This document shows positions 1-63,256 of a stretch of 64,000 nt of DNA, in pieces. Each line of letters starts with the position of its first letter. Within the stretch, counting starts at the first letter, position 1. The position numbers were made by a program, and so were the translations under genes. The stretch lies in assembly GCA_009784815.1 (NCBI GenBank), contig WQXN01000002.1:3586-67585 (forward strand), written 5' to 3'. This DNA is from Alphaproteobacteria bacterium (GTDB taxonomy: Bacteria; Pseudomonadota; Alphaproteobacteria; Rs-D84). The notes under the pieces were generated by a model. It did no database searches. It was not told where the DNA came from and saw only the letters and a program-made list of their open reading frames with translations.

Positions 1-2610
<2,610 letters not shown>

Positions 2611-2849
2611 CTCTGTTTGACTTTGGTTTTGACGCCGATGCAAGTTGGTGTCATAACCGCCTTTGGTTGCCTTCCGGCTTCGGTCGGAAGGTTTCCTCCA
2701 AGTCATTACAATGCTTGAAATGCAAGTTTTTTGAAAACTATTGCATTCTTGATTCTTAAACGAAATGATGTTTATGGTAGTTTTTGTTCCGGGGCCTCGG
2801 CCCCGGAACAATACTTCCGCCTTTTAGATGTTTAATTCGGTTGATTTTG

Positions 2850-2966
2850 TTCTGGTGATTATGGCGTGGAAGCCACTCGCTGTTCCATTTCGAACCAGAC
2901 CGAGAAACTCCACAGCGCCGATGGTACTTTGTCTTAAGGCACGGAAGAGTAGGTCGTCGCCAGAAC
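2850..2966 (+). rRNA. rrf: 5S ribosomal RNA
   Basis: TCTGGTGATTATGGCGTGGAAGCCAC...CCGATGGTACTTTGTCTTAAGGCACGGAAGAGTAGGTCGTCGCCAGAAC has 5S helix I pairing (CTGGTG/CGCCAGA) and loop motifs. A ~240-nt spacer after the 23S carries a processing stem GTTCCGGGGCCTCGGCCCCGGAAC at 2795-2818. Confidence 0.85.
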
Positions 2967-2978
2967 AAAATCAACCTA

Positions 2979-3371
2979 TTGATTATAAAACCGAAAACAA
3001 TACTTTATGCTGGGCTTGCCCAGCACTTTTTTATTGATAAATTGCTGCTTGATTGTACAATCGCTTTTATGAATATAGAACAAGAACTTGAATATATTGA
3101 TTTCAGAATAAACGAACAGGGTCATGAAGTGCATTCAAGACCCAGGGTATCGGGTGACGTCAAAGCCGAATATTACGGCATAATGGGTGTTGATTTAAAT
3201 CAGCGCAATGCCATATTCTCAAGATGGTGCAACGATGCAAAAAACCCCTGGGGCTTCGGAGGCGGCTATGAAGCCGGTATAGATAATGATAAATATACAG
3301 GAGCCAAGGCCGAAACCATATTCAATCATCTAAAAGCCGCATACCAAGCGCAACTTGTTCCGACTATTTAA
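2979..3371 (+). CDS. hypothetical protein (start may be the internal ATG at 3069)
   Basis: ORF of 130 aa between 5S rRNA and a divergent gene; no recognisable motif. Confidence 0.3.
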   Translation: MIIKPKTILYAGLAQHFFIDKLLLDCTIAFMNIEQELEYIDFRINEQGHEVHSRPRVSGDVKAEYYGIMGVDLNQRNAIFSRWCNDAKNPWGFGGGYEAGIDNDKYTGAKAETIFNHLKAAYQAQLVPTI

Positions 3372-3441
3372 AACAAAATCCCGTACTCAAATCTTGTCCG
3401 CTGTAATGGGCGGGCGGATTATTGATCAGAATTATTTTAAT

Positions 3442-4275
3442 TTATTTTGAAATAAAATACTCGGTGGATTTGGCTAAAGCTTTCATAAGCTTTGGGAATT
3501 CGCGGTCATATAAATCTGTTCCTTCCGAAATTGCTTTCGCATGAAGTCCGGTTCCTTGCTGTTGGAATATATTTAGTATATCGTGCTTTGTTAGTCCGGG
3601 TTTATATTCAGCGCCCATCTTGCTGACAAACTTGTTATCCGCTTGCTGAGTATTTTGATCCGGCTCTAATTCGATATAAAAGCCGGAAAATTTCTTCGCC
3701 ACATATCTTAATTTCTGAAACTGTTCATCCTTTGGAATATACACGAAAGTGCCCAAGGAAATAAAGTTGGACGTTTTTGCGATACTATCTATTTTATCCC
3801 AAACGACTATTTTATGATTTTTATTTATACCAAGCTTTTGCGAAGTCTGCTGAAATATTTCATTGGTAGTGTCGTCTTTTTCTATGGAAAAAGTATTTAT
3901 AAAAAACGATTTGTATTCATCTAAAAAATGCACAAGCGGAGAAAAACCGCGTCCGAAATCCACAACATTTGGTAAAGCTTTGACCGAATGATAGGCTTCT
4001 GTGAATCTTTTTGCATAGTAGAAGCTGCGGTAGGGTACGATTTTATCGATGATTGCTGCTATCGCGGCCGGGGATTGTACTGCAAGCATGAATTTGCCCA
4101 GCGCTCCGAATCGTTTTTTGAATTGTGGTTTTCTTGCAACTTCAATCAGCGCGCGGTTCCAGTCTTTAAGCATATACATGGATCCCTGCGGCATTGGCTT
4201 CAAAATATCGCGGTATTTCATGATTCCGCCTTCCAGTCCAAGCGAACAACCAAGAGTAATATCCAAAGCCGACAT
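3442..4275 (-). CDS. hypothetical protein; weak methyltransferase-like glycine motif (VVDFGRGFS)
   Basis: 277-aa ORF; AAAGGA RBS 8 nt before ATG; own promoter-cassette copy upstream (4300-4328). Confidence 0.5.
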   Translation of the reverse strand: MSALDITLGCSLGLEGGIMKYRDILKPMPQGSMYMLKDWNRALIEVARKPQFKKRFGALGKFMLAVQSPAAIAAIIDKIVPYRSFYYAKRFTEAYHSVKALPNVVDFGRGFSPLVHFLDEYKSFFINTFSIEKDDTTNEIFQQTSQKLGINKNHKIVVWDKIDSIAKTSNFISLGTFVYIPKDEQFQKLRYVAKKFSGFYIELEPDQNTQQADNKFVSKMGAEYKPGLTKHDILNIFQQQGTGLHAKAISEGTDLYDREFPKLMKALAKSTEYFISK

Positions 4276-9090: not shown

Positions 9091-9771
9091 ATGAGCGATC
9101 AACACACGAAAGAGCAGGCACTTAATGAATTGGCGTATAAGCTTCGCGTGACTGCAAACGCAAGAACGTTCAAAGACGATATATTGTCGGCGACGCCGAA
9201 TAGGATTGGTTTTTCGGCCTGCTGCTTATGTGGCAAGGACGAATGCGATTGCGATAAGATAGAAAATAACCTCAGGGTCGAATACGTCAGGACTCTGCTT
9301 GAAATTGACCCAAGTCTTATACAGCTGACGCGCGGAGAATTGATGCCCGCCGACAAGCTGTGCGAAGACTGTCGCATATGCGAAGAATTGATCGATAATC
9401 CCGAAGACTGCCCTAGGCATGACGCTCCTTACAAAGTCGAATGCTATCATTCGTTCAGCCGCGGTATGGGACAGTTTGTCGCGCGCGCATGCGCGGGCAA
9501 ATTTGACGACGTTACGTTTGCAGAATATAATTTGAAAAGAGGCGTGGATGTCTGGGCAGTTTATGAACTTTATAATTCTATAGATTCATCGGTGCGCGAT
9601 AGTATAAGAAAAATAGTTGTTGGGTATTACCATATCAAGCTTGCCGATGGGACCAATCTTATGGGCGAAAGCGATGATATCGTGTCCTTGGTGCATGGTG
9701 CGTTTGCTCGGCAGCAGGGCATTCAAGGGCATCGTTTATTCAAAGCCGGACCCTGCCGCGGCAGCAAATAA
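9091..9771 (+). CDS. Cys-rich cytoplasmic hypothetical protein (14 Cys; CCLCGKDECDCD, CEDCRICE clusters). Possible metal-binding.
   Basis: 226-aa ORF; no signal peptide; behind poly-G cassette. Confidence 0.55.
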   Translation: MSDQHTKEQALNELAYKLRVTANARTFKDDILSATPNRIGFSACCLCGKDECDCDKIENNLRVEYVRTLLEIDPSLIQLTRGELMPADKLCEDCRICEELIDNPEDCPRHDAPYKVECYHSFSRGMGQFVARACAGKFDDVTFAEYNLKRGVDVWAVYELYNSIDSSVRDSIRKIVVGYYHIKLADGTNLMGESDDIVSLVHGAFARQQGIQGHRLFKAGPCRGSK

Positions 9772-9814: not shown

Positions 9815-10093
9815 TTAATACTCGACCGTTTCGATTACGACGGCGGGGGTTTCGGGACATTCGGCGGCTTTGTCCGATTTGTCGCTGCGGTATTTTTTGT
9901 CCCTTCCGAACATTTTGCGGCTGCGTTCTTTCGCGTCTTTGTACACGTCCTTGGCGCATTCTCCCGCGTCATGTTCGGCCTGTTGCAGCTTGTTGTAAAA
10001 GTTCGGGTCTTTGGACCCGGCGGTGTATCCTATCGCTACGGCGGCGACTACCGCGGCGGCGATTATCAAAAGCGTGGTTAGATTAGATTTCAT
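9815..10093 (-). CDS. small secreted/membrane-anchored basic protein (93 aa from MKSNLTTLLIIAAAVVAAVAIG)
   Basis: AAAGGAGA RBS 6 nt upstream of ATG at 10093; hydrophobic N-terminus. Last gene of the minus-strand secreted-protein operon. Confidence 0.45.
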   Translation of the reverse strand: MKSNLTTLLIIAAAVVAAVAIGYTAGSKDPNFYNKLQQAEHDAGECAKDVYKDAKERSRKMFGRDKKYRSDKSDKAAECPETPAVVIETVEY

Positions 10094-10159
10094 AATTCTC
10101 TCCTTTTTTGCATCCGCATTATCCATGCGGTCAGGATAGAATTCAATTTGACGATTGTC

Positions 10160-12130
10160 CTATCCTCCGGACGGGGCGCCTCTGCTTCTGGTAGGAGTGG
10201 CCGCCACTGGAGCCGTCGGCGCGGAAGGAGCAGAGGAAGGTGCGGCAACCGGCGCTGAAGTTGGTGCGGGGGCAGACGGAGTCGAAAAAAAGGAGGCAGC
10301 ATCCAGCCGTTGTCCGCTATTTTGTCTTTCCCGCATCGCGTTCGCTTCGGCTGCGGACATATTATTCAAACCAGTGTCAGTTCGGGTTCCTGTAAACGTG
10401 CCCGTACCCCCCCCCACCGCTTCACTTGTCGTTGTGCTGCCGCCGCCGCTCGCGGCAACTTGATTTCTATTAGTTTCTCTATTCTGAAGAGCTATTTCTC
10501 GATTTTCTCCGGGTATTGATGTGATTTCAACTCGACCTTCTGCCTCTGGATTTAAAGCGCGATAGGTCGCCAAATTCGCCGCTGCATTATCAAAGTCGGC
10601 ATCAAATTGTGATTGGTCCGCTTGCGCTCTTGCAGCTGCCGCCGCTGCGGCTGCTCCGTTCATGGCGTCTGCATATCCGTCGGCTCCGCTGGCTCTGTTT
10701 GCGTTATCTATCGCCTCTTGTCCTCCGGTGCCGCCTGTATTGGTCCCTCTATCTCCGCGCGGTTGGATCAAAGCTTGTGGATCCGTTGGTTCGGCCGCAG
10801 AGGGCGATGATCCGGCACCGCCTTCGGGTGAAAAGGCTTCGATAGGAATGGCCTGTTGCGTTGAATCGAATTTTGTTTCTTCTTCTTTCTTGTCCAGCGC
10901 GCCGGCGCGTACGGCCGTGACAAGGCTTGCGGCTCCGACTCCAAGCCCCGCGCCAAGGAACGCCGCGCTTGCGCCTGCCGCGGTTACGTCGCGGTTGATC
11001 GCGTTCATAAGATACCTGGTTACGTCCACGCCGAACCATTCTTCTGTGCAAACAAAGTCGCCGCCCGGAGCGATCTTGCGCGAAGCCGGAGTGTATCTGC
11101 GCCCGTCCGCTTCAACCGAGAAGATCGCAGTGAAAGCGCATTCGCCGTTGCGATCGTCGAATACCGCCCCGACGGACGTGCACATATTGCGCATCGCGGG
11201 CATCATTGCGTCAAGCTCGGCCTGAAGCGCGTGTATTTGTTTTTCCCGCTCGACCCGCAGCGCCCCCATCATGTTCGTGAACCTGACTTGTAGATTGCTG
11301 TCGAACTGCCTGAACTCGTCATACACGGGCCGACATGCGGACAGGGCCTGGTTGATCCGCGCCTGCGTCACGCATCCGTTGAATCCGATCGCGACATGGC
11401 CAAGCAATGTTCCCGCCGCGCGCTGTGTCGCGCACTGGGTCTGCAAACAGCGCGAGTAAGCTTCGTTGCCGTTGATGATTTGTCCAAACAGCCATAGGCG
11501 CGCGTCGACTTCGACGTCGTCCCGTATTATTTTTCCATAAACGGAAAGCTCGGCTCCGGAACAATTGACCCGCGTGCGGCATCTGTTGAATCGTTCGCTC
11601 CATACTCCGTCGCCGTCGTTGAAGCATCTTTGCAGATTGTCCCCGCAGTCCTGTTTGACGCAGGCAAGAAGTTCGGTCGCGCACGGAGTGCGGTCGGTCG
11701 GATTTATCCTGCGCCTAAACTGTATCAAGGTTGCCTCGCGCCGCTCGCGGTCGCTTTGCGCTCCCAGCGCGCGCTCCCAAGCGTTGGTCCCGCCGCTGCG
11801 TCTGCCGCCGCTCATATCCTGCATGCGGGTTTTGATTCTGTCGGCGTTGGTTGTCGCCGTCGGCGGTTCTTCCGCAATTACTTCCGGTGCGTTAGCCTGC
11901 ACGACTTGCGCCGCGATAATTCCTGTGGGCGCAATACCCGGCGCCGCGCCGCGCGTAACAACGCCGCGCCCAGCGGTTGAGACTGTAGGCGCAGCACCTT
12001 CGGCGGGCGCTGTGGTTGTCGCCGGTATTCCGCGCGCCGCGCGTCCGGTTGGCGCGGGCGTGCTGGCGGATGCCGAAACCGCAATGGCGATCAAACCTGC
12101 CGATAAAAATTTTATGTATAATATTTTCAT
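10160..12130 (-). CDS. large secreted low-complexity protein: signal peptide, Pro/Ala/Thr linker, Cys-rich domain, glycine-zipper hydrophobic segment, poly-Ala and Ser/Pro/Ala tail
   Basis: 656-aa ORF. Signal peptide MKILYIKFLSAGLIAIAVSASA. Segment AAGASAAFLGAGLGVGAASLVTAV. Runs AAAAAAAARAQ and APAPTSAPVAAPSSAPSAPTAP. Start overlaps the upstream gene stop (ATGA). Contains a G9 tract. Confidence 0.6.
   Translation of the reverse strand: MKILYIKFLSAGLIAIAVSASASTPAPTGRAARGIPATTTAPAEGAAPTVSTAGRGVVTRGAAPGIAPTGIIAAQVVQANAPEVIAEEPPTATTNADRIKTRMQDMSGGRRSGGTNAWERALGAQSDRERREATLIQFRRRINPTDRTPCATELLACVKQDCGDNLQRCFNDGDGVWSERFNRCRTRVNCSGAELSVYGKIIRDDVEVDARLWLFGQIINGNEAYSRCLQTQCATQRAAGTLLGHVAIGFNGCVTQARINQALSACRPVYDEFRQFDSNLQVRFTNMMGALRVEREKQIHALQAELDAMMPAMRNMCTSVGAVFDDRNGECAFTAIFSVEADGRRYTPASRKIAPGGDFVCTEEWFGVDVTRYLMNAINRDVTAAGASAAFLGAGLGVGAASLVTAVRAGALDKKEEETKFDSTQQAIPIEAFSPEGGAGSSPSAAEPTDPQALIQPRGDRGTNTGGTGGQEAIDNANRASGADGYADAMNGAAAAAAAARAQADQSQFDADFDNAAANLATYRALNPEAEGRVEITSIPGENREIALQNRETNRNQVAASGGGSTTTSEAVGGGTGTFTGTRTDTGLNNMSAAEANAMRERQNSGQRLDAASFFSTPSAPAPTSAPVAAPSSAPSAPTAPVAATPTRSRGAPSGG
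10407..10415 (-). repeat. Homopolymeric G9 tract (C9 on + strand) inside the CDS 10160..12130, about 85 codons from its stop
   Basis: CCCGTACCCCCCCCCACCGC read directly; encodes ...AVGGGTGTF... Confidence 0.9.
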
Positions 12131-13152
12131 CTGTTATCGCCAAAGTTAAAGTTAGCCTGATTGACAACTTTGCATGCTTCCGCATTAAAACTGGTGCAAA
12201 GGTTTGTGGCCATCTCGCGCGCGGCCGGATGAGTGCAGTTGTCGGTGGTCTCCGGCGCAAGCAGCGAAGTCGCGGCGACGGTTCGCGCTCCAAGCGCCGT
12301 GTCGAACATAGCGCAATAAACTCTTATGCAATCCCTTTTCGCGCGGTCGTCCTTGCATAAATTCACGGCGCGGTTCCATCTGCGTTGGCGGTCCGCGGCG
12401 GCGTTGGTTTCGGCATTGGCTAGGCGTTCGCGGTCGCGGACGTCCAGATTCCTAATCTGACTTTTAAGATCGGCGTTTATGCTTCCGCGTCTTTTTATTA
12501 CGTTGTTGCCTTCGCGTATTTCTCCGTCTTCGCAACCGTGCTCAAGAAGGCACAGGCCGAAGAACCTGTCGAACGCCGCGTCGTTGCCGACGCCGCGGCA
12601 GTTGACCCATCCCGCTCCGCACCGCGCGTCTTCCTCCATGCAAAGGCCTGTCAAAGCCACGCACATCTCTGTGTCTTTGACTTCGGCAACGGCGGTCGCG
12701 GTTTCATGAAACCTGTTGGCGGCGTCGCTGGCGGCGCACGATTGTTCGACAAGCTTCATATATTCTTCAATGGTGTCCCAGGAATTGTTTTCGTCGCAGT
12801 TGCGGATTTTAGCTACGCATTTTTCGGTGGCCCAAACGAAGCGGTCTTCCGAATTGGTCGGCGCGTCGCGAAGTTCGCGCGCGCTTAAATTCACGTTCGA
12901 ACTTGCGTCAAGCGCAAGAGCCTGAAAGCCCAAAGCGTTTCCGGCTCCGTGATAAGTATCCTCGCGAAGTTGCGCCCGCCGCGCGCGGTCGGTAGGACCG
13001 CACAGACGGCACCGCGATCCGGGATCGGTGGTTATGTCGGTGACGCACGCGGAATCAAGACATCTTATAAGGTCGTTCGTTCTGCACGCAAAGGCATTCG
13101 ACGCGAATACAGCGCCTACCGCGAAAGTAAACATTAATAAGTGCAGTTTCAT
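12127..13152 (-). CDS. secreted Cys-rich protein (about 30 Cys), hypothetical
   Basis: 341 aa; signal peptide MKLHLLMFTFAVGAVFASNAFA; divergent from the 13280 gene. Confidence 0.6.
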   Translation of the reverse strand: MKLHLLMFTFAVGAVFASNAFACRTNDLIRCLDSACVTDITTDPGSRCRLCGPTDRARRAQLREDTYHGAGNALGFQALALDASSNVNLSARELRDAPTNSEDRFVWATEKCVAKIRNCDENNSWDTIEEYMKLVEQSCAASDAANRFHETATAVAEVKDTEMCVALTGLCMEEDARCGAGWVNCRGVGNDAAFDRFFGLCLLEHGCEDGEIREGNNVIKRRGSINADLKSQIRNLDVRDRERLANAETNAAADRQRRWNRAVNLCKDDRAKRDCIRVYCAMFDTALGARTVAATSLLAPETTDNCTHPAAREMATNLCTSFNAEACKVVNQANFNFGDNR

Positions 13153-13279
13153 TCCAAATCTCTCGTCCTATATTGTACCATTTTTACAAACTTCATTCAA
13201 ACTTATTTTTTATATTTGAAAGGTGGTCCAAAATATGATACAATGTCGGAAAGAGATAGTAGACCAAGGGAGTCTGTAA

Positions 13280-15180
13280 TGTATAAAATTATCGGTGCTT
13301 TGTCGTTGTTCGCGGTGTTGCCAATATCGGCCGCAGTGTCCGCTGTTCCCACGGGGGCGACGGTTTACAACGCAAACGCGGTCATGCCTGTGAATATGCC
13401 GGCGCGCGCCGCGACCCAGCAGGGAAGCCTTAGGGCGGCGGTTCAGCATCAACAGCCCGCGCCCGCCCGCGGTGGATTTTTAACCGGAGCGATGGGCGCA
13501 GGCGTCGGTACCGTTAACGTTCCGGGCGCCGGAAGCGCCAGCAACGTTGTGACTAATAATCCGGGGCAAGTGACTCCTCCGCCTCCTCCTCCGGTCGTTC
13601 CGGAAGTCCCGACTATGTCGGTTCAGCAGTGCATGGGCATGATAGAATCCTGCGTCAACAGAACTTTGCCCGGCGGTATAAGGAATCTGTTCGACGAAAA
13701 TATGAGGAATTCGATAATCAACGGCATGAACCTTTGTCAGAACGAAGTAGAAGACTGCCGCGGCCAGGTATTGCTTGCGGTCCGCGTGTCGGACGCCGCG
13801 GATGCCGCGACCATTATGACTCCGGTATATCGCAACAATGCGGACGTCTGGGTTGACTTTAACAGCCGCGTCGTAATGCCGCAATACTATGCGTTTACCT
13901 TGCAGCGCACGGGGCTGACTCCGCGTCAGGCCGAAGCGGTCTGCAAAATGATCGACAGGAATATGTTCGGAACTTCGTTCGCGGCGGTCGGAATCACCAA
14001 CCGCGTAACGACCGAGCTTGATAGGAACGTCGCGCCTTATAATTTGCAGGGCGAAGCGACGGGCTATAGATTCGGTCCGGGAGATCAGCCAATGGGCCCG
14101 GGTCTGAATCGTAATCCGGTCGACGCGATGCGCGGATACTATGGACGCTGGGACGCCGAGCGAGCGCAATGCCTAGTCCGTGTCGCGGCTTATTACAATA
14201 CAAGCCTGATACAGAACAGGTGGACCGCGGGTCTTGGCATGATACACGAACGTGCGGGCTTCCGCGTGGGATCGGGCGAATGGGCGGAAGTATGGCGCAC
14301 GGCCGGCGAAAGCTTTAGCTGCAACAACAACCTGTTCGGATTCAATATGCTGACCAGTACAAAGGAAAATGCAGTTTCTGGCGCAGTCCTGGGCGGAGCG
14401 ACCGGCGCGATAATCGGCGCAGTCGGAACGGCAAGCAAATTGAAGGACGTCGACTGTAGCAATCAAAAGCACAGGGAGGCTCTTGTGCTTGCCCTAAGGC
14501 CCTTTGATTGTCACGGAGATATAGGCGAAATTTGTAGGCCGGTCCAAGCTGGCGCCACTGCCCAAGCTGGCGATGCTGCCACTCCTGCGGGACAAGCCAC
14601 GGCGGCGCGCGCAAATTGGACCATTAACAATTTCGCTCAGTGCGGCAAGGCTTTGGAGCATATAAGGGATAACTTCCAACCCGAGACTTTGGCTGTAGTG
14701 GAAAAAACCTGGGCCGACGAATTCATGGGAGCTGGTGGTCGTGCCTTGATCGGCGGCGGTATCGGTGCGGCCGGCGGTGCGGGTCTTGCCGCGGCGATCA
14801 CCTATTTCGTCGAAACCAACAACATAACTTGCCGCGTTGGCGACAACCTTGAAACCGTCGGATACAACAAGTCCTTCTCGATACCGACTCTGAAAGACTT
14901 CTATGTCAAATGGGCCTTGAATATGCCCGATTCCGACAGCAGCAACCCGCTGCCGATCACGGGACGCGGAGATTGGGAAAACGTCTGCCGATCGCCGATC
15001 GCCGGATCCAGGGACGCGTGCGAGGAAATCAAAGTCAACTATCGCCGCGAAGGTCTGATAACGGGCATGACGATATGGAACGCCTGTACCTGGACCGGGG
15101 ACGAACTGCGCGGAACCTGCGGAATCAACAGGATTACCTGTCTGTCCTACGGAGTTTGCACGCTGGGCGACATACGGTAA
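13280..15180 (+). CDS. large secreted Cys-containing protein with glycine-zipper segments (start taken at MYKIIGALSLFAVLPISAAVSA)
   Basis: Extended -10 TGATACAAT at 13236-13244 and AAGGGAG RBS before ATG 13280. Segments SGAVLGGATGAIIGAVGTAS and GAGGRALIGGGIGAAGGAGLAAAI. Followed by a terminator. Confidence 0.6.
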
Positions 15181-15198
15181 GTTTAACCTCCTAGCTTA

Positions 15199-15226
15199 AA
15201 GCCCCCGAAAGGGGGCTTTTTGTTTT
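15199..15226 (+). terminator. Rho-independent terminator
   Basis: AGCCCCC-GAAA-GGGGGCT stem followed by TTTTTGTTTT. Confidence 0.6.
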
Positions 15227-15305
15227 AGCAATACTTTTCCCATTTACCATTTTCCATTTACCATTTTTTGTGATATAATATCCGTAACAGAGAGAACGTA
15301 AATCC

Positions 15306-16145
15306 ATGCGTAAATTCATCGCTCCGATTTTTTTTATCTTATCATTTTCAGCCTACGCCGCCGAACAGTCCGAAGAGGCTTTGGCGCGCGCCGCGCGTAA
15401 TGATCGTATGAGGCAGGGCGCGGGCATAGCCGCGGCCGGTGTGGGCGGAATGCAATTGGGGCAGGGCCTGGCCGAGAATCAAGCCCAGGCTGCGGGTCAA
15501 CAACGCATGCAGAATTATCTTGATACTTGGCAATGCGGAGTAGGTCGCGTCGACGGCACGACCGGCCGCATAGACTGGTCGCCCGGTACCACGCAGGTTA
15601 GGGCGGGGCAGGTTTGGTCTTCGCCGGAAGCGCATTCGGTCCTGACGCGCGACCTTGCGCGCATGCGCCGCGAGTTTGAAGAAAAACAAAATCAAATCCG
15701 CATGGCCAAGGGCGAGCTTGACATGGAACTGTCCGAAGAAGAGCTGCATACATTCGTAAGACATAATCTTTACGCCACAAGCGACGATGTTGCCGCGGTG
15801 GAAAACATGAACCAAGTCACGACCGGAGGCGGTGACAACCGCATAGCGATCGGTGCCGGCCTTGCGGGCACGGGCCTTATGCTTGCAGGCGGAGCAAAAA
15901 CGGGCACCGCGATCGGAACAGGACTTCTTGCCGGCGGCGCTGTCGCGGCCTATCAGGGACATCAGAACGAAGACGCGGGCAGAATGGCAATAGGCGGAGC
16001 GGCGGCAGTGGCCGGCGCGGGCACAATACTTGTTGATCAATCCGGCGGGCTGGGCAATATTATGAACCGGGGAGGCTCGGGTGGTGCGTCCGGCGGTTCA
16101 GGCGCCGCAGGCATAGGCAATCTCCCCGGCATCATGGGTAATTAA
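15306..16145 (+). CDS. secreted Gly/Ala-rich protein with glycine-zipper repeats
   Basis: 279 aa. Signal peptide MRKFIAPIFFILSFSAYAA. Segments AIGAGLAGTGLMLAGGAKTGTAIGTGLLAGGAVAAY and GGSGGASGGSGAAGIGNLPG. Confidence 0.55.
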   Translation: MRKFIAPIFFILSFSAYAAEQSEEALARAARNDRMRQGAGIAAAGVGGMQLGQGLAENQAQAAGQQRMQNYLDTWQCGVGRVDGTTGRIDWSPGTTQVRAGQVWSSPEAHSVLTRDLARMRREFEEKQNQIRMAKGELDMELSEEELHTFVRHNLYATSDDVAAVENMNQVTTGGGDNRIAIGAGLAGTGLMLAGGAKTGTAIGTGLLAGGAVAAYQGHQNEDAGRMAIGGAAAVAGAGTILVDQSGGLGNIMNRGGSGGASGGSGAAGIGNLPGIMGN

Positions 16146-16220: not shown

Positions 16221-17030
16221 TCAATCAAACTCTACCGGCGTCCATTTGTCTATTGTATGGTTATAAAAAATATACTCCACTGGTTGAACCCATATACAAC
16301 CCTTATTGCTGCATACTTGTGTATTACATTCATTTTCACGCGTAAACCACAGAAATTGACAACCATCTGGCAATTGTTTATACGCCGATTCAGATGTCTT
16401 TATATCTGTGCCGCCGCAGTCGCGTAATATTCCATCACCATACAACAACCATTCTTTTTTGTCGCCATATATCATATATGCCCCCTTTAGTTCTTTTGGA
16501 ATATAGATTCGGGTTATCTTTGATGGGTTAAATGGAATATATTCATGCCTATCGCGGCACCATATAGCCCCATTGTCTTCTACGTGTGTCATATTGATAT
16601 CTACGTCCAGTACAAACAAATGATTCCCGCGTGTTGCCAAGACAACCGCATTAGGGTTGTCCTGCAATAATACGGCTTTACGAGCTTTTTGTGTAATTGT
16701 TCCGTCACGGTCAAAATTATCAAAATCTTGCCAATCTGGATAAAATACAGACATCAATCTTCCGCCAGATTTTTTATTAAAAAAAGTGAATTTTCTGTTG
16801 TCATCAGGACAATTGATTGACCCTGTGTCTCCTTCGCGCCATCGAGTAAATCCAATGTCGCCCCGATTAAGTTCTTGAGTGGTTAGTTCTTTAAGGTTAA
16901 ATTTATCAATAACGTCTTCAAAATTCATGCGGGATTTAAGAATTACATCTCCACATGACAAAGAATATTCTTGTTTTGTGATTGCGCAAGATGTAATTAA
17001 TGTTATCGATAATACAAATATATATTTCAT
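16221..17030 (-). CDS. lipoprotein, hypothetical (AT-rich gene)
   Basis: 269 aa; signal + lipobox LITSC; 12 Cys; GC clearly lower than flanks. Confidence 0.5.
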   Translation of the reverse strand: MKYIFVLSITLITSCAITKQEYSLSCGDVILKSRMNFEDVIDKFNLKELTTQELNRGDIGFTRWREGDTGSINCPDDNRKFTFFNKKSGGRLMSVFYPDWQDFDNFDRDGTITQKARKAVLLQDNPNAVVLATRGNHLFVLDVDINMTHVEDNGAIWCRDRHEYIPFNPSKITRIYIPKELKGAYMIYGDKKEWLLYGDGILRDCGGTDIKTSESAYKQLPDGCQFLWFTRENECNTQVCSNKGCIWVQPVEYIFYNHTIDKWTPVEFD

Positions 17031-17440: not shown

Positions 17441-17456
17441 CTTAAAATAAGATAGT

Positions 17457-17545
17457 GGCGGAGCGTATAGGACTCGAACCTATGGACGGGTTTAAATCCG
17501 TCACGGTTTAGCAAACCGCTGCATTACCACTCTGCCAACGCTCCG
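17457..17545 (-). tRNA. tRNA-Ser (anticodon GCT)
   Basis: Revcomp gives GGAGCGTTGGCAGAGTGGTAATGCAGCGGTTTGCTAAACCG + long variable arm + GGTTCGAGTCC...CGCTCCGCCA. Anticodon loop TTGCTAA. Confidence 0.85.
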
Positions 17546-21121: not shown

Positions 21122-22174
21122 ATGTTTTTCCCCGAAGCCCAAAATGTTCTTGGCACCGCGACAAGCACCTTCAACAACGCGGCCTTGGCTTCGCCTTGGT
21201 TTGTCCAGCTGGCTTTGATTGGAATTCCTTTGTTCGCCATCGCGTGGTTCACATACGCCGAGGTTATGTCGCGCATCGCTCCCGACGTAAAAAAGCGCCC
21301 CCTTGCGATCCGCGCTTGGGTGTTTTTCGGCCTGGCGTTGTGGGCGGCCTTCGGTATGGGCAACTTCGCCGTAGCGCGTGAACTTTCGACGCTGGTCGAA
21401 TTCATAGTGCCGGCAATATTGTTCTTCGCGTCGGCCTTCGCCGCGAATGCGGCTGTTAAACTAGGGGCGGTGCCGCAAACCGGCCTGTCCAAATTGACGC
21501 GCGTAGCGTTGGTGGCCGCATTGATCGTGGCGGTCGGATTTTTCGGAGCAAGAAATTTCTATGGGGCGTTCCTTCCAATATCTGCATTGATAGCGGGCTT
21601 TCTAACTGGATTCTATTCAGCGCGTTACGCGGGCAAAACTTCCGCGCAGGCGGGATACCCTTTCGTCACGTCGTCGCTTTTGATGCTGACGGGCGCGGCT
21701 TGCATACTAATGCAGCCCGAGCTGTTCAGATTCGGCCAACTAGGCAATCTTGACCTGCTTCAACTGGCGGGCTTTGCGCTTGTGGCCGTCCTTGCGCCGC
21801 AGGTTGCGATTTTGTCCGTGATGGCGCGCGTCAAACGATCCAAGGGCTTCTTAAATCGCACGGCGCACGACCGTGTGATGTGGCTGCTAAGGCTCGGAGT
21901 ACTGCTCTGCATGGTCCTGTTTTTCATAACCGAAAGCATCGTGACATTCGGAATCCTTTCGTTGTCGGTTGTGCCTTTGGCGCTTGTCTCGGGCGGGCAC
22001 CAGCCCTACTCGGAAGCCAAAATAGTCATGGCGTTCGTGCTTGATTTATGGAGCGTACTGTTATTCGTATTCGGCCTGGTTGCGGGATCTTATGCTTTGG
22101 CTTTCCTTGCCATAATCCTGCTGCGTTGTTCCGCCAATAAAAGCGTCATGGCCCAAGCCAAGCGCCTGTTATAA
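21122..22174 (+). CDS. polytopic inner-membrane protein, hypothetical (about 10 TM)
   Basis: 350 aa, highly hydrophobic, no assignable family. Confidence 0.5.
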   Translation: MFFPEAQNVLGTATSTFNNAALASPWFVQLALIGIPLFAIAWFTYAEVMSRIAPDVKKRPLAIRAWVFFGLALWAAFGMGNFAVARELSTLVEFIVPAILFFASAFAANAAVKLGAVPQTGLSKLTRVALVAALIVAVGFFGARNFYGAFLPISALIAGFLTGFYSARYAGKTSAQAGYPFVTSSLLMLTGAACILMQPELFRFGQLGNLDLLQLAGFALVAVLAPQVAILSVMARVKRSKGFLNRTAHDRVMWLLRLGVLLCMVLFFITESIVTFGILSLSVVPLALVSGGHQPYSEAKIVMAFVLDLWSVLLFVFGLVAGSYALAFLAIILLRCSANKSVMAQAKRLL

Positions 22175-22246
22175 TCCGTTATTCTTTTTAATTTCAAAAT
22201 CCGTTCGGCATAGGTTATAATTTTGGGGCAAACCAAGGTAATTATA

Positions 22247-23056
22247 ATGATTCACAGCACCGCGATAATAAGCCCTAACGCCGTAATCGGCAAGGATGTC
22301 GAAATAGGACCGTACTGCATAGTCGGCGACAAAGTAAAGCTTGGCGATCGCGTAGTTCTAAAATCCAACGTGGTGGTCGAAGGTCCTTGCGAAATCGGCG
22401 AAGACACGATCGTATACCCATTCGCTGCGATAGGAATAAAAGGCCAGGACCTGAAATTTCAAACGGACGATTCCGTGACCGGAGTCAAAATCGGAAAAAA
22501 GAACCGCATTCGCGAATACGTCACTATCCACCAGGGAACTCCGGCCTCCAAAGGCACCGTGGTCGGTGACAACTGTCAGATCATGGTGAACGCGCACGTG
22601 GCGCACGACTGCGTGCTTGGAAACGGAATCATACTTTCGAACCTTGTGCAGCTGGCCGGCCACGTGGAAGTCGAAGATTTTGCGATAATATCCGGCATGG
22701 TCGCGGTGCACCAATTCTGCCGCATAGGAAAATATTCGATAGTGGGCGGAGTTTCCGGCGTAACGAACGACGTGCTTCCGTACAGCATTTCAGACGGCCG
22801 GCCCGCGGTGTATAAAACCATCAATCGCGTCGGCCTTACCCGCCACGGTGTCTCGACCGAAGATATGCACGCGATCTATTCGGTCTATCAGGCTCTGTTC
22901 GACAAGACCGAAGGCACCACTGCAGCCGATAGATTGAAGGAAGTTAAAAAGAAAGTTAAGAACAGTCCTTATGCCATGGACGCGCTGGATTTTATAGAAA
23001 ACCGGTCCAAGCGCGGGGCTTCCGATTCCTCGAAGCGCACTGCTCATGAAGGATAA
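22247..23056 (+). CDS. lpxA: UDP-N-acetylglucosamine O-acyltransferase
   Basis: Left-handed beta-helix hexapeptide repeats; conserved HxxAHD (NAHVAHDC) and HQF (AVHQFCRIG) motifs; start taken at MIHSTAII. Confidence 0.85.
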   Translation: MIHSTAIISPNAVIGKDVEIGPYCIVGDKVKLGDRVVLKSNVVVEGPCEIGEDTIVYPFAAIGIKGQDLKFQTDDSVTGVKIGKKNRIREYVTIHQGTPASKGTVVGDNCQIMVNAHVAHDCVLGNGIILSNLVQLAGHVEVEDFAIISGMVAVHQFCRIGKYSIVGGVSGVTNDVLPYSISDGRPAVYKTINRVGLTRHGVSTEDMHAIYSVYQALFDKTEGTTAADRLKEVKKKVKNSPYAMDALDFIENRSKRGASDSSKRTAHEG

Positions 23057-24224
23057 AAAAAATCCTAAACTTAAAATATTCATCATCTCGGGCGAGGCGT
23101 CCGGCGACGTCCTTGGCGCGAAAATAATACGCAGCTTTTTGCGCCGCAACCGTTTTTCGCGGCCGCATCATGTAGAATTCCGGGGCATCGGCGGCATGAA
23201 TATGAAGAATGCGGGCCTGAAAAAATCCCTGTTCCCGATAGAAGATTTATCAGTCATGGGATTCACGGCAGTCCTGATGCGGGCGCGGACGCTGCTGCGC
23301 CGAATCCGCGAAACGGTTGCGGCGATAAACGAATGGCGGCCGGACATAGTTTTGACCATAGACTCGCCCGGTTTTGCGAAAGCGGTCGCGTCAAGGTTGC
23401 ATGGATGTGAATCGCGTCCCAAGCTGTTCCATTTTGTCGCTCCTCAGGTCTGGGCTTGGAGGCCGGGCAGGGCGAAAAAATTCGCGAAACTGTTTGATAG
23501 GCTGTATTGCTTTTTTGATTTCGAAGTGCCGTATTTTACCAGGTACGGATTGCCGACTATTCCGGTCGGGCATCCGGTCGCGGACGGTGAAATAAAGGAA
23601 GCAATGCCTGGAATTTTCAGGAAAAGATACCATATCGCGCGCGGCCGTAAAATCGTCGCGATGATGCCCGGTTCGCGCATGAATGAAATCGAAAATCTTT
23701 TGCCGCTTATGAAATCTGTGGCCGATAAATGGAGCGGTCACCAAATAGTGATCCCTGGCGCGGACACGGTGCGGAAAAAAATCAAGGCTATGACGCATGA
23801 TTGGAAAAACAAGCCGCTTGTGATAATGCCAAAAGACAGGTATATACTTTTCCGCGACGCGAACGTGGCGGTCGCCGCAAGCGGAACGGTCACGGTCGAA
23901 CTTGCGATCCTGCATACGCCGGCGGTAGTGGTTTATAAAACGAATTTTCTGACCTACCTGTTGTACAAACTTTTGATCCGGGTGAAGTATATTTCACTTG
24001 TGAATATAATCTCGGGAAAAGAAATCTATCCCGAACTGCTTCAACATAAAGCCGCGCCGGATAATGTGTTCCGCGCGGCGGACGATCTTATTAAGCATAA
24101 AAAATCCCGTACCAAAATGGTCGAGCAGCTAAAGGCCGAAGATAAAATCTGGTCCCGCGGCGGCCATCCGGCTTCGGACTTGATCAAAAACGACATCCTA
24201 AAAACAATCCGTAATAAGAAATAA
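23046..24224 (+). CDS. lpxB: lipid-A-disaccharide synthase
   Basis: 392 aa; N-terminal IFIISGEASGDVLGA and GT-B fold pattern; overlaps lpxA by 11 nt. Confidence 0.85.
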   Translation: MKDKKNPKLKIFIISGEASGDVLGAKIIRSFLRRNRFSRPHHVEFRGIGGMNMKNAGLKKSLFPIEDLSVMGFTAVLMRARTLLRRIRETVAAINEWRPDIVLTIDSPGFAKAVASRLHGCESRPKLFHFVAPQVWAWRPGRAKKFAKLFDRLYCFFDFEVPYFTRYGLPTIPVGHPVADGEIKEAMPGIFRKRYHIARGRKIVAMMPGSRMNEIENLLPLMKSVADKWSGHQIVIPGADTVRKKIKAMTHDWKNKPLVIMPKDRYILFRDANVAVAASGTVTVELAILHTPAVVVYKTNFLTYLLYKLLIRVKYISLVNIISGKEIYPELLQHKAAPDNVFRAADDLIKHKKSRTKMVEQLKAEDKIWSRGGHPASDLIKNDILKTIRNKK

Positions 24225-26697: not shown

Positions 26698-27045
26698 ATG
26701 TTCGAAGCCAGCTATGATGATAACAATGTTTTTGCGAAAATTCTAAGGGGGCAGCTACCCTGCGACAAACTTGCCGAAAACGACCACGCGATCGCATTCA
26801 AGGATTTGCATCCAAAAGCTAGGTTTCATGCGCTTGTTATCCCGCGGGGCGAATACGTGAACATACATCATTTTATACGAAAAGCGACGGCGGACGAACA
26901 GGTTGGATTTTGGAATCTTGTCGCGGATATTGCGGAACTGGCCCGATCGGACGGCTTTAATACGTTAACTAACACCGGCGCCTCGCACGGACAGCAGGTC
27001 CCGCATTTTCATATCCACATTATGGCCCAAGTTAAGGATTCGTAA
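26698..27045 (+). CDS. HIT-family (histidine triad) nucleotide hydrolase
   Basis: VPHFHIHIM histidine-triad motif. Confidence 0.8.
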   Translation: MFEASYDDNNVFAKILRGQLPCDKLAENDHAIAFKDLHPKARFHALVIPRGEYVNIHHFIRKATADEQVGFWNLVADIAELARSDGFNTLTNTGASHGQQVPHFHIHIMAQVKDS

Positions 27046-28228
27046 GCCGCAGTTCGATGCGGCGGTTGCGCTGCAAGTCTTCAGGACGGTTGCCGATCGC
27101 GACCGGGTGCGTTTCGCCGAATCCGGTCGGAGCAAGCAAGCGTCGGTCTATCCCGTTCTTAACAAGCTCTTCCGTCACCGCGCGCGCTCGCAGCAGCGAC
27201 AGCTGAGTATTGTCGCGCAGCTCGCTGCCAGGACGCACCGGTATGTTGTCGGTATGCCCGTCGACGCGGATTATCCAGCTGACGTTGTTCGGTATCATGG
27301 TATAGATCTCTTTGATCACGTCGGCGATGTTTTTAAGCTGTCTTTTTCCCGAAGCGGATATTGCGTACGATCCTTGAGCGAACAATATGTCGCTGGGCAG
27401 GGTGAACCGGTCGTCGTCCATCTGTACCATTCCGGTGTCGCCCAATGATCGGCGCACCGCGGAAAAGAACATGGACTGATACTCGCGCATATCTCCGACC
27501 TCGGCCAGCTTGTCGGCCAACGCGCGGTTAAATCGCGTGGACAATTCGATGTACTGCACTTCGCGTTCTGCGGCGCGTTCCTCCGACACGGCAAGCGCGT
27601 TGGACAAGTTCGCGATTTCTCGCGTCAGCGTGCGAAGCTGTGCGGCGGTTACTTCCTTTGCAATCGTAGTGGCTTCGGTCTCGGTCCTAAGCGTCCCTTT
27701 CAGGTTTTCCAACTCGCTAAGCAACCGTCGCCGCTCGACATCGGATACCATCGCTTCGTCTTTAAGGCTTTGCAGCTCGGTATGCTGGCGTTCTAAATCC
27801 GCGTTTGCGGCTTGCATTCTCGCCATCTCGGCGGCCTGCTGCGACAACTCGCGCGTTTGCTGAAGTATAAGGCCTTCCTTGGCGCGCGCTTCTATTTCGG
27901 CGTCGGCGGCTTCAACTTCCATACGTGCGACGGCTTCGGCTATCAGGGCTTTTTGAAGCAGCAACTCGTTGGCTTCGTCTTCCAGCTGCGCGCGGTTCTG
28001 AACGAATCGTTCAAGTATGGAATCTTGGTTTACTATGCGTTCGGACAGCTCGCGGATTTTTTCATCTTTAGAGGCGTCAACACCGGGTCCTGATTCTTTC
28101 AGCAGGAATTTCGCGGACGAAGACATGACGACGAAAACGATAAGCAGGAATAACAATACTATGGTCAGGTTCGAGAACAGATCGACGAACCCGGGCCAAA
28201 TGTTAACCGGCTCGCGGTGCCTTAGCAT
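27032..28228 (-). CDS. MotB/OmpA-family protein with an unusually long central coiled coil (398 aa)
   Basis: N-terminal TM with MotB/TolR-like WPGFVDLFSNLTIVLLFLLIVF, ~230-aa heptad-rich segment, C-terminal OmpA-like peptidoglycan-binding domain (TDNIPV...NTQLSLLRARAV...NRRIEL). 26-nt overlap with upstream motA-like gene. Confidence 0.65.
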   Translation of the reverse strand: MLRHREPVNIWPGFVDLFSNLTIVLLFLLIVFVVMSSSAKFLLKESGPGVDASKDEKIRELSERIVNQDSILERFVQNRAQLEDEANELLLQKALIAEAVARMEVEAADAEIEARAKEGLILQQTRELSQQAAEMARMQAANADLERQHTELQSLKDEAMVSDVERRRLLSELENLKGTLRTETEATTIAKEVTAAQLRTLTREIANLSNALAVSEERAAEREVQYIELSTRFNRALADKLAEVGDMREYQSMFFSAVRRSLGDTGMVQMDDDRFTLPSDILFAQGSYAISASGKRQLKNIADVIKEIYTMIPNNVSWIIRVDGHTDNIPVRPGSELRDNTQLSLLRARAVTEELVKNGIDRRLLAPTGFGETHPVAIGNRPEDLQRNRRIELRLTNP

Positions 28229-29150
28229 TCTTTCTCTCTTCCTTTTTTATTTCTTTTATCGAACTTATCACTGCGCCCATTTTATTGATTGCCGAATTCA
28301 TCTGCTTGTCCCGCTCGCGGATATGTTTTGAAAGTTCTCGTACTGATTTGGTCATGGCGTCTGTGGATTTGGACAGCTCGAACGCGGCGGTCTGCACATA
28401 GGGCAGGACGGTTTCTTCTCCTGATTCCGGCTGGGATAGATAGCCGAAAAGTTTGGTATAGTTGGACAGGTTTTCTTCCAACTCGCGGAAGATCGCGTTC
28501 TGCGCCAAAGACGTTTGCAGTGCCAGGAACCCGACTACCAGCGATCCGGCCAAACCAAGAAATGACGAGCTGAAAGCAGTGCCCATTCCGACCAGCGGAG
28601 CGGTAAGCCCCTCGCGCATGGCTTCGGTCGCGGCGCCAAAGTCGCTTCCGAAATCCATTCCTCCGACTATGGCGCTGAACGATCCGATGGTGTGCAGCAG
28701 GCCCCAGAATGTCCCAAGCAATCCCATGAATATAAGTATGTTTGTTGTGTACCTGTTCTGCTCGCGTTGATCTTCAAAGCGTCCCAATATTATGTCCAAA
28801 AACGTGTTCAGCGTCTGCGACGATATGTAGGGCTTGTGCTGAACCCGGACGGACGTAAGCATCTTGGCGACGGGCCGAAGAACGAAAGGCGGAAGCTGCG
28901 GGATTTTCGCCCCGGGCCGCGCATAGAAGAAATTCTTCATCCATCTGTATTCCGGCACCAACCGAAACACGTCGAAAAAACACGATATTACGCCGAACGC
29001 GGCGACGCCCATGATTGCTCCGTTCAGCCAGATATTGGTCATGACTATGTCTAAAAAATCATTCCAGAACAGCATTATGGCGACCATGATCATGGCCGTG
29101 AACAAAACCATGCGGTTTAGAATTTTGTGAAACTGATTGCTCATTTCCAT
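28203..29150 (-). CDS. MotA/TolQ/ExbB-family proton-channel protein
   Basis: 315 aa; 4 TM; conserved MotA/ExbB C-terminal TM3-TM4 region (TAPLVGMGTAFSSSFLGLAGSLVVGF). Confidence 0.65.
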   Translation of the reverse strand: MEMSNQFHKILNRMVLFTAMIMVAIMLFWNDFLDIVMTNIWLNGAIMGVAAFGVISCFFDVFRLVPEYRWMKNFFYARPGAKIPQLPPFVLRPVAKMLTSVRVQHKPYISSQTLNTFLDIILGRFEDQREQNRYTTNILIFMGLLGTFWGLLHTIGSFSAIVGGMDFGSDFGAATEAMREGLTAPLVGMGTAFSSSFLGLAGSLVVGFLALQTSLAQNAIFRELEENLSNYTKLFGYLSQPESGEETVLPYVQTAAFELSKSTDAMTKSVRELSKHIRERDKQMNSAINKMGAVISSIKEIKKEERKNAKAPRAG

Positions 29151-34751: not shown

Positions 34752-35528
34752 ATGGAAAACAAAGCAAAAATTACAACGAATCCCGTGAATAACACGGCTG
34801 GCAAGGCCGCCGCGCCTGCCAAGCAGTCATTTTGCCAGTGTGTTTCGACCAAGGCTAAAAAGACTTGGTGCTGGGTAAAAGCCCGGAATATGGCCACTGT
34901 CGCGAACACCGCGCTTCTTGTTTTGACTGTTGCTATGCTTGTGATCTTGATAAAAGTTGTTCAGCAGAACAATCGCATAGTGGCGAACGTGTCGCCAAAG
35001 GCCGCCGAATTGCAAGTCCAGCGTGCTGCGCCGCGTACGGTTTCGGCCGCTAAACAGGCTTCTGTACCCGCGCCGACTTCCATAGCAAGACAAGAAAGGC
35101 TTGCGCCCGCCCGTCCCAAGAATGTTTCTTTTTCGGATGCTCCGGCCGCTGTTTCAGTTAACACCCAGATTACGGTCCAGCCTCAGCAGCCCGCAAGGCA
35201 AACCACTCGCATAGTCGTTAATTCCGCCCCGCGCCGCGCTCCGTCGAACGCCGAATGGATCCGTCAGGAACAGCAACTGCGCCCGGTGTCCCGCGTGAAA
35301 AAGCTTCCGGCTATGTCGCAGGTCAAAGGCAACCTTTACATACAGAACATGAACGCTTATACTATTCCCTGCGGCACGAAAGTGCAGGGCGACCTGATAG
35401 TCAGAAACGTCCGCAAGCTTGACTTTTGCGGCTGCTTCGAAGTCAAAGGCAACGTCTACGTCGGCCGAGGCGTATCGTTTGGTCCGCTTCCGAAAGGAGC
35501 CAGGATCGGCGGCCAGATCATACATTAA
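34752..35528 (+). CDS. single-pass membrane-anchored protein with C-terminal GN(L/V)Y(I/V) short repeats
   Basis: 258 aa; TM TALLVLTVAMLVILIKVV; repeats KGNLYIQN / QGDLIVRN / KGNVYVGRG; tandem TTGACA boxes upstream (34675, 34688). Confidence 0.5.
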   Translation: MENKAKITTNPVNNTAGKAAAPAKQSFCQCVSTKAKKTWCWVKARNMATVANTALLVLTVAMLVILIKVVQQNNRIVANVSPKAAELQVQRAAPRTVSAAKQASVPAPTSIARQERLAPARPKNVSFSDAPAAVSVNTQITVQPQQPARQTTRIVVNSAPRRAPSNAEWIRQEQQLRPVSRVKKLPAMSQVKGNLYIQNMNAYTIPCGTKVQGDLIVRNVRKLDFCGCFEVKGNVYVGRGVSFGPLPKGARIGGQIIH

Positions 35529-35542
35529 AAGGGTAAATTAAA

Positions 35543-43436: not shown

Positions 43437-43478
43437 GATTTGCACCGTTTTAATTCTTATATTGATTGTCCGGGAAAA

Positions 43479-44072: not shown

Positions 44073-44082
44073 GGAGATCTGA

Positions 44083-52052: not shown

Positions 52053-52054
52053 AT

Positions 52055-52813: not shown

Positions 52814-52824
52814 TTTTCCTCCGT

Positions 52825-61271: not shown

Positions 61272-61290
61272 GCAGACCCAAGGGGAGAGA

Positions 61291-63216: not shown

Positions 63217-63256
63217 ACCTTGACTTATCGGCAACCCTCAGGATATAATTCTCGCA

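Follow-up and report, generated by a model that had tools for sequence, protein, structure and literature searches.

The 64,000-nucleotide stretch of contig WQXN01000002.1 analyzed here (the window), from an alphaproteobacterium of the order Rs-D84, carries a cluster of five genes, A to E, of which four (C, B, D and E) define at least four new protein families as judged by sequence comparison. We propose as our leading, still tentative, reading that the products of these four genes form an envelope-anchored complex displaying a polymorphic surface domain. The candidate for that domain lies in protein D, where a variable domain is inserted between two glycine zippers, which by its sequence is a new domain arrangement. 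The protein families and this arrangement are what is new; an envelope-anchored polymorphic surface complex, as a kind, is already known.

In the proposed complex, C, B, D and E would be exported by Sec signal peptides and would remain outside the cytoplasm in disulfide-bonded form. A conserved all-alpha, cysteine-rich periplasmic scaffold would be provided by C together with its homologue, the N-terminal half of B; GxxxG glycine-zipper helices would hold B, D and E in the outer membrane, as in SlyB, YfgH and YiaD, and in most relatives an OmpA domain on B or on an E-like protein would tie the complex to peptidoglycan. D would present a disulfide-locked insert between two invariant zippers, swapped wholesale between strains, and recognition by phage, host or partner cells would place this insert under diversifying selection. 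It is in this sense that we infer the localization, complex formation, surface exposure and biological role of the module.

New protein families and their spread among gut alphaproteobacteria

Scans of proteins A to E against Pfam, NCBIfam, PHROGs and PADLOC gave nothing above threshold. Profile searches of the PDB with the D and C alignments returned zero matches, and C and D are without a PDB match by sequence or by fold. A preliminary description of the locus, made from the DNA letters alone, had proposed new, unannotated exported families and had named homology to a known family as the finding that would count against them. For C, B, D and E the proposal stands: no such homology appeared in the library searches or, for C and D, in the sequence and fold searches of the PDB.

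D has 81 homologous protein clusters (E down to 1e-213), every one of them annotated as 'hypothetical', and 278 stretches matching it were found in species-representative genomes. The best 80 of these 278 were used for the comparison of loci; all 80 come from gut metagenome-assembled genomes (MAGs), namely Ca. Enterousia, Alphaproteobacteria from rumen, horse, chicken and human, and termite-gut 'Rickettsiales'. Three of the loci with typical D modules (L011, L016 and L017) stand in records titled 'uncultured Muribaculaceae bacterium', probably through a binning or labeling error. Open reading frames (ORFs) were called in all fetched loci and then screened using both the window proteins and profiles. 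Relatives of B lie within 10 kb of D in 51 of 81 loci, those of C in 47 and those of E in 27; these counts are lower bounds, many of the contigs being short. In 47 of 47 loci C is followed directly by B in the same orientation, and the gaps between them mostly range from -19 to +21 nucleotides (nt). The earlier view that the genes belong together is borne out by this neighborhood of C-B, D and E in dozens of related genomes, while the idea of one family of five had to be given up: B is linked to C by a shared domain, D and E each stand as a family of their own, and A has no kinship with the rest.

The order B<C<D>E> of the window is found again in L009 and L089, the relatives closest to it, and a Logan contig (L002) encodes proteins identical to those of the window for all seven genes compared. 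The Enterousia version is larger and reads f946> f335< D> [C> B> E-like>] f1207. Here f946 is a cysteine-rich protein of about 950 amino acids (aa), f335 an inner-membrane protein with two transmembrane (TM) segments that lies next to D in 75 of the 81 loci, and f1207 a large exported protein whose N terminus gave a weak ankyrin-like match below threshold. No homologues of f335, f946 or f1207 were found within the window, nor any paralogues of B, C or D elsewhere in it. Judged by these comparisons, C, B, D and E are a reduced, four-gene local form of an order-wide module.

The window orthologues of D, B, C and E are closest to those of termite-gut MAGs and next to those of Enterousia, and on this ranking the analysis based its placing of the window genome in Rs-D84. 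The nearest relatives come from termite and vertebrate guts, in keeping with the host-associated bacterium assumed beforehand. Enterousia has been placed in the GTDB order Rs-D84, the genomes of which are smaller than 1 Mb and lack amino-acid, nucleotide and lipid biosynthesis, respiration and flagella; its members are presumed to depend on other cells and are reported to retain peptidoglycan synthesis genes (PMC12306168).

Two further observations concern the module in relatives. In L089, the closest relative, phage-type integrase genes flank the E-D-C-B module on both sides (1-3564 and 11888-14128), accompanied by a DNA methylase and an HTH_17 gene; mobile elements have inserted beside the module. 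In L020 (9743-13925; termite-gut MAG JAISKV01) two D paralogues of 679 and 713 aa stand in tandem, the protein with the variable insert having been duplicated.

The N-termini of B, C, D and E run from an n-region rich in K/R through a hydrophobic core to an AxA-type site, as is typical of Sec signal peptides. Gene A encodes an N-terminal membrane anchor and a charged tail with no clear cleavable signal peptide, and the signal peptides originally assigned to all five proteins are therefore confined to four. Dense cysteines had likewise been ascribed to the whole group; they are found in C (20, where about 30 had been estimated), D (18) and B (13), but not in E (1) or A (2). All cysteines are invariant in C (20 of 20, 42 members), in B (13 of 13, 40 members) and in E (1 of 1, 24 members). 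Within families the number of cysteines is mostly even in C, D and f946, and odd in B (28 of 39) and in the E-like proteins (19 of 21). In the C family the first cysteine lies 0-3 residues past the AxA site, outside any lipobox. Among 88 related loci, relatives of A were found only in two copies of the same contig; because no related locus has a homologue, we regard A as genome-specific, outside the conserved module and without its family features.

Protein D and its variable insert

Of all the members of the module, D was detected most widely. From the N terminus it comprises a signal peptide, a disordered Pro/Arg-rich linker, an N-domain, zipper 1, the insert, zipper 2 and a C-domain (Table 1). 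The N-domain carries the conserved motifs TGLTPxQAE, RG(H/Y)YARWD and RVAAY and is predicted to adopt a mixed alpha/beta fold without a PDB match. Invariance of the zipper glycines was judged over 22 sequences. Zipper 1 scored 15.8 bits against Gly-zipper_OmpA (PF13436; cut-off 27), and a D homologue (P0075) has a precomputed match to Gly-zipper_YMGG (PF13441). The three glycine-zipper segments quoted in the preliminary description are all present, and D has a further one, zipper 1.

Among relatives the insert varies in length from 55 to 257 aa, with a mean identity of 0.24. Its cysteines are even in number in all but one of 42 homologues (41 of 42) and net negative charge marks its flanks, which argues for an extracytoplasmic, disulfide-paired domain. 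The same two properties, cysteine pairing and net negative flanks, ruled out an arrangement in which the zippers are inner-membrane helices around a cytoplasmic loop.

Strains of Enterousia show how this region changes. Their flanking D domains are 99-100% identical, the insert 12-43%. Over 76 pairs of D proteins with N-domains at least 98% identical, insert identity is bimodal, at 80% or more in 40 pairs and 30-70% in 36; in 40-column segments of the insert it drops to 12-23%, and the boundaries are sharp at the zippers. Three conspecific contigs (L003, L090 and L091), with housekeeping genes 94-99% identical, are 97-100% identical in the DNA of D except for about 450 nt of insert that blastn could not align. 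A segment of the E-like protein (about aa 50-200) is likewise unalignable in both conspecific comparisons and, between L003 and L090, f946 and a neighboring gene ('545') have also been exchanged or have diverged strongly. Identity between these contigs remains at 95-99% for C, B and f335. Divergence of the insert amid near-identical flanks excludes drift: divergent alleles must have been brought in and then kept, the hallmark of regions that face phages, hosts or other cells. Because it is exchanged wholesale between strains, the D insert is most likely surface-exposed. The earlier suggestion of a surface protein gains indirect support in this way, for D and through its Enterousia relatives. 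In the window D itself, the insert is 16-37% identical to that of its nearest relatives and the conserved domains 54-76%.

Proteins B and C

Behind its signal peptide (residues 1-22), C consists of a predicted all-alpha domain with the 20 invariant cysteines, and its AlphaFold2 (AF2) model is all helical (predicted local distance difference test score, pLDDT, 79.7). C is the founding member of a family of about 290 aa, with 37 matches of 126-400 aa in a HMMER search of a representative set of 1.84 billion proteins; this full search was needed, as little beyond the queries themselves came back when C and B were put through a word-indexed search. B is built from a signal peptide, an Ala/Pro/Thr/Arg linker, a Cys-rich domain, a glycine zipper and a low-complexity tail. 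The N-terminal half of B aligned with the whole of C at an hhalign probability of 94% (E 1.4e-7, 249 columns), where unrelated Cys-rich or membrane families used as negative controls all stayed below 3%, and the C profile matches B at residues 145-193 and 247-306. The Enterousia protein f946 shares this Cys-rich module (hhalign 84% versus B and 68% versus C). Pairwise BLASTP among B, C, D and E detected no similarity; the kinship of B and C is visible to profiles only. On the strength of these profile alignments, B and C are homologous over an all-alpha Cys-rich domain.

The linkers that follow the signal peptide in the D, B and f946 families share Arg-containing repeats (ARAAT, ARSAT and GRG). 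An hhalign probability of 92% between D and B is confined to the first ~110 columns, which make up this linker region, and the Enterousia D proteins have a conserved RMPxMPxLP motif there. The low-complexity stretches, described at first as eukaryote-like, are ordinary disordered linkers.

The B family consensus retains the G/A pattern of the zipper. The nearest relatives of B (P0084, 60% identical to it, and P0085) have a zipper followed by a C-terminal OmpA domain, in the place of which the window protein has its tail of about 240 aa.

The zippers had also given rise to the idea of effector or pore-forming proteins. On this view the proteins would be secreted effectors or toxins directed against membranes of the host or of competitors, with the zippers as insertion elements. 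Some pore-forming toxins do contain glycine zippers, the proteins combine signal peptides with low-complexity regions, and the zipper region of B gave a weak ApoL match (13 bits versus a cut-off of 25.9). That score is far below threshold, however, and no recognizable toxin or pore domain rose above threshold in any of the proteins A to E. Orthologues are fused to peptidoglycan-binding OmpA domains, the zippers resemble those of resident outer-membrane lipoproteins, and no immunity gene, secretion system or toxin domain lies nearby. The module is moreover broadly conserved in the related genomes examined, with strong purifying selection over most of its length, is not on phage or mobile DNA and has native codon usage. 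We therefore consider an effector or toxin role extremely unlikely and have dropped that part of the preliminary description.

Protein E and the OmpA domain

E consists of a signal peptide, a core domain (residues ~32-140), glycine-zipper helices and a Gly-rich tail. It is the counterpart of the middle part of the E-like proteins of Enterousia, which are 600-1000 aa long, begin with CarboxypepD_reg and, in 21 of 27, end with OmpA. The carrier of the OmpA domain thus differs, being the E-like protein in Enterousia and B in the termite relatives. Its placing on E-like proteins in one branch and on B in the other amounts to a domain swap between two partners, as would be expected if both were subunits of a single complex. 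Proteins A to E of the window had no match to OmpA_C (PF00691). A tblastn search for an OmpA remnant, whether frameshifted behind B or represented by A, detected none in any frame.

The odd numbers of invariant cysteines in B (13) and E (1) make an intermolecular disulfide the simplest reading, and B and E may be joined in this way. The grouping of the cysteines in B suggests that Cys361 may be the unpaired one.

OmpA domains are necessarily periplasmic, and their presence on B or E-like orthologues also fits a purely periplasmic scaffold that stabilizes the envelope without surface exposure. Zipper hairpins would then anchor disulfide-rich proteins in the inner leaflet of the outer membrane, bound to peptidoglycan in the relatives, and would strengthen a cell with a reduced genome. 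The very high density of cysteines and their invariance, the resemblance of the zippers to those of SlyB and YiaD and the 95-99% conservation of C, B and f335 between strains all agree with such a role, for which there is a precedent in the chlamydiae, whose envelopes rely on disulfide cross-linked Cys-rich proteins (PMC6752827). It leaves unexplained, however, why the D insert, part of the E-like protein, f946 and the '545' gene are replaced between near-identical strains, since selection of this diversifying or balancing kind does not normally act on structural proteins of the periplasm. Nor is there sequence or fold similarity to OmcA/OmcB or SlyB. We consider the periplasmic scaffold unlikely, though not to be neglected.

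Comparison with known envelope systems

In Escherichia coli, the outer-membrane lipoproteins SlyB, YfgH, OsmB and YiaD contain glycine zippers; YiaD in addition has an OmpA_C domain (bioRxiv 10.64898/2025.12.22.696046). B, D and E resemble these proteins in their hydrophobic helices with GxxxG repeats in an exported envelope protein. E has two zipper helices with a short turn, like a hairpin of two TM segments, and the B orthologues join a zipper to a C-terminal OmpA domain, as YiaD does. Unlike them, B, D and E have no lipobox, and no Pfam model of the group (PF13436, PF13488, PF13441 and PF05433, Rick_17kDa_Anti) reached its threshold, B and E having no match at all. The window proteins are also 3-6 times larger, with added novel Cys-rich domains, and the two zippers of D are parted by a variable domain of 55-257 aa and not by a turn.

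With the outer-membrane complex of chlamydiae (COMC; OmcA, OmcB and MOMP) the module shares an origin in host-dependent bacteria with reduced genomes and several exported envelope proteins very rich in conserved cysteines; MOMP (PMC6752827, PMC13254160) also has surface-exposed variable domains between conserved segments. In contrast to OmcA and OmcB, B, C and D gave no match at E<=1 to the Pfam models of the chlamydial proteins OMP3 and OMP6, and the folds, where modeled, are all-alpha (C) or mixed alpha/beta and not a beta-barrel or OmcB-like. Rs-D84 differs from the chlamydiae, too, in its reported retention of peptidoglycan synthesis genes. Anaplasma Msp2/P44 is an alphaproteobacterial surface protein with a central hypervariable region between conserved N- and C-terminal parts, as in D, and the literature on it describes variation by recombination of cassettes. 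The Msp2/P44 proteins are, however, Surface_Ag_2 (PF01617) beta-barrels, whereas D has no match to that family and an alpha/beta AF2 model, and D varies between strains and not within one genome.

A further parallel is found in myxobacteria, where the secreted receptor TraA has Cys-rich repeats and the overlapping gene traB of the same operon codes for an OmpA-like domain (PMC3325183). In Myxococcus an exported Cys-rich protein has a strain-polymorphic recognition domain, the genes are arranged as an overlapping bicistron and a partner has a peptidoglycan-binding OmpA-like domain; the counterparts here would be the polymorphic insert of Enterousia D, the overlapping C-B genes and the OmpA domain of E-like or B orthologues, which the window copies lack. 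TraA has been described as polymorphic in later papers. By analogy, the module might be an apparatus of contact-dependent recognition and exchange or uptake, through which lipids, proteins or nutrients are obtained from a partner cell. The polymorphic insert of D, the overlap of C and B, OmpA domains on partner proteins and an inner-membrane f335 that adjoins D in Enterousia would suit such a machine, and the lineage is predicted to take metabolites from other cells (PMC12306168). The case is one of analogy only: in Pfam and NCBIfam scans PA14, the TIGR04201 repeats and the MYXO-CTERM tag were all absent, the proteins are not homologous to TraA or TraB, and phylum and lifestyle are different. 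The window lacks f335, f946 and f1207, and its genome keeps PlsX, FabH and AccAD, so that lipid scavenging is not obviously needed. We rate a TraA/TraB-like function as very unlikely.

Weighing the proposed surface complex

Several points weigh against an envelope-anchored complex with a polymorphic surface domain, and they account for our reserve. Window B and E are without OmpA, so that peptidoglycan tethering is seen in relatives only. B, D and E have AxA-type sites without a cysteine and hence no lipobox, no window protein reaches a Pfam glycine-zipper threshold and no disulfide-forming enzyme was seen among the scanned ORFs of the 64-kb window. The AF2 model of D is moderately confident (pLDDT 59), with low confidence at the zippers. 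Hypervariability at the strain level is seen in Enterousia and not in the lineage of the window; no close strain variants of the window D were found in JGI metagenome contigs, and its insert, a short one, has diverged more in relative terms only. Proteins rarely span the outer membrane with alpha-helices, and the whole of D could be periplasmic. The organism is uncultured, and localization and interactions are deduced. Finally, the window proteome is strongly divergent, about one third of the ORFs of at least 150 aa having no Pfam match (for example 3442-4275, 21122-22174, 34752-36253, 45427-46197 and 63238-63987), and the absence of such a match is for this reason weak evidence by itself.

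A bolder version of the surface complex can be drawn, in which D is an alpha-helical display protein spanning the outer membrane. Its two invariant zippers would cross the membrane and present a disulfide-locked recognition cassette that recombines between strains, and its N- and C-domains would dock on a periplasmic, disulfide-linked C/B/E scaffold with a covalent B-E heterodimer, the module serving these obligately dependent bacteria as an organelle for recognizing a partner or host cell and taking material from it. We regard this elaborated model as distinctly unlikely.

Gene layout and control elements

The coordinates of genes, domains and control elements are collected in Table 1.

Table 1. 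Genes, protein segments and control elements of the A-E locus, in window coordinates
Feature	Position	Strand	Remarks
Gene A	9815-10126	-	103 aa; 93 aa if the second ATG is the start
Gene B	10160-12130	-	656 aa
B low-complexity tail (poly-Ala, Gly/Thr/Ser/Pro), residues 413-656	10163-10894	-	
B glycine-zipper hydrophobic helix VTAAGASAAFLGAGLGVGAASLVTAVRAGAL, residues 382-412	10895-10987	-	predicted from hydropathy
B Cys-rich domain, residues 145-365	11036-11698	-	homologous to C by profile; 13 invariant Cys
Gene C	12127-13152	-	341 aa
Divergent control region between C and D	13153-13278		126 nt
Promoter-like site for C-B	13200-13172	-	
Promoter-like site for D	13216-13244	+	
Gene D	13279-15180	+	633 aa
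D N-domain, residues 114-362	13618-14364	+	mean pairwise identity 0.64
D glycine zipper 1, residues 363-385	14365-14433	+	G372/G376/G380 invariant, G368 nearly
D variable insert, residues 386-484	14434-14730	+	99 aa; 4 Cys, disulfide-paired by Cys parity
D glycine zipper 2, residues 485-510	14731-14808	+	G492 and G496 invariant
D C-domain, Cys-containing, conserved, residues 511-633	14809-15177	+	identity 0.52
Intrinsic-terminator-like hairpin and T-run after D	15198-15229	+	9 bp, 6 GC pairs
Promoter-like site TTTCCA-17-TATAAT upstream of E	15251-15279	+	
Gene E	15306-16145	+	279 aa
E invariant Cys77	15534-15536	+	within core domain
E glycine-zipper helices, residues ~178-245	15837-16040	+	

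All five ORFs of the preliminary description are present where it had placed them, and the overlap it had reported was found between C and B (4 nt, ATGA). The reading frame of gene A starts 33 nt downstream of B. The source MAG record carries the public locus tags FWD33_01365-01375. The shared divergent control region, one nucleotide shorter than the 127 nt first given, contains two back-to-back extended -10 promoter-like sites (TTGAAA-17-TACAAT and TTGAAT-17-TACAAT), and a ribosome-binding site, AAGGGAG, precedes the start codon of D. The terminator thought to close the cluster was recovered as a hairpin with a T-run, but it sits between D and E. As E also has its own promoter-like site, it probably forms a transcription unit of its own.

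The G+C content of the region is 0.55-0.59, with an excess due to codon position 2 (GC2; 0.49-0.58 versus 0.33-0.43 elsewhere), and at codon position 3 (GC3) it is 0.59-0.64, no different from the housekeeping genes examined (RNase G, GroEL, Lon and IleRS). The genes of the locus are real and native, and their high G+C reflects proteins rich in Ala, Gly, Pro and Cys. Horizontal transfer as the source of the high G+C was ruled out because GC3 matches the genome. A phage or mobile origin was also ruled out, a search of viral contigs with D yielding zero relatives.

Other features of the window

Cysteine-rich ORFs occur elsewhere in the window. A 226-aa ORF without a signal peptide (9091-9771, +) has 12 Cys with a metal-binding-like CCxCxxxxCxC cluster, no Pfam or NCBIfam match and no homologue in the related loci. 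Between E and a tRNA-Ser (17456-17544) lies a lipoprotein-like ORF of 269 aa (16221-17030, -) with an LITSC lipobox and 9 Cys, homologues of which were confined to copies of the same contig; with a GC3 of 0.32, where the genome has about 0.6, it is probably a recent acquisition. A third, of 664 aa (61222-63216, +), has a likely internal start at MNVFLIV..., a signal anchor, many Cys and a high GC2 like that of B to E; this exported Cys-rich protein had no Pfam match and was matched by none of the module profiles.

Other genes relate to the envelope. A four-gene operon (49542-54203, -) resembles chaperone-usher pilus systems of the Csu or spore-coat-U type and encodes an 836-aa protein with a weak CarboxypepD_reg match, a 257-aa exported protein without a Pfam match and DUF4402 proteins of 303 and 156 aa. 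A MotA/MotB-like pair (27032-29150, -), in a lineage reported to be without flagella, consists of a 315-aa protein with multiple TM segments and a 398-aa protein in which an N-terminal TM segment and a long coiled coil precede a C-terminal OmpA domain; PADLOC gave weak ZorA/ZorB (generic MotAB) matches. Two tandem paralogues of PagL, a lipid A 3-O-deacylase (43440-44646, +), together with LpxA/LpxB (22223-24224), indicate that the genome makes and remodels lipid A.

Implications for the biology of Rs-D84

Rs-D84 and Ca. Enterousia are widespread in the guts of humans, livestock, birds and termites, and they have genomes of less than 1 Mb and do not make most of their building blocks (PMC12306168). 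Up to seven genes with about 4,500 codons make up the module in Enterousia, more than 1% of a genome of that size and a large investment in exported proteins. Its order-wide conservation, its invariant cysteines and its strain-swapped cassette make it the best current candidate for a structure through which these bacteria may interact with phages, hosts or partner cells.

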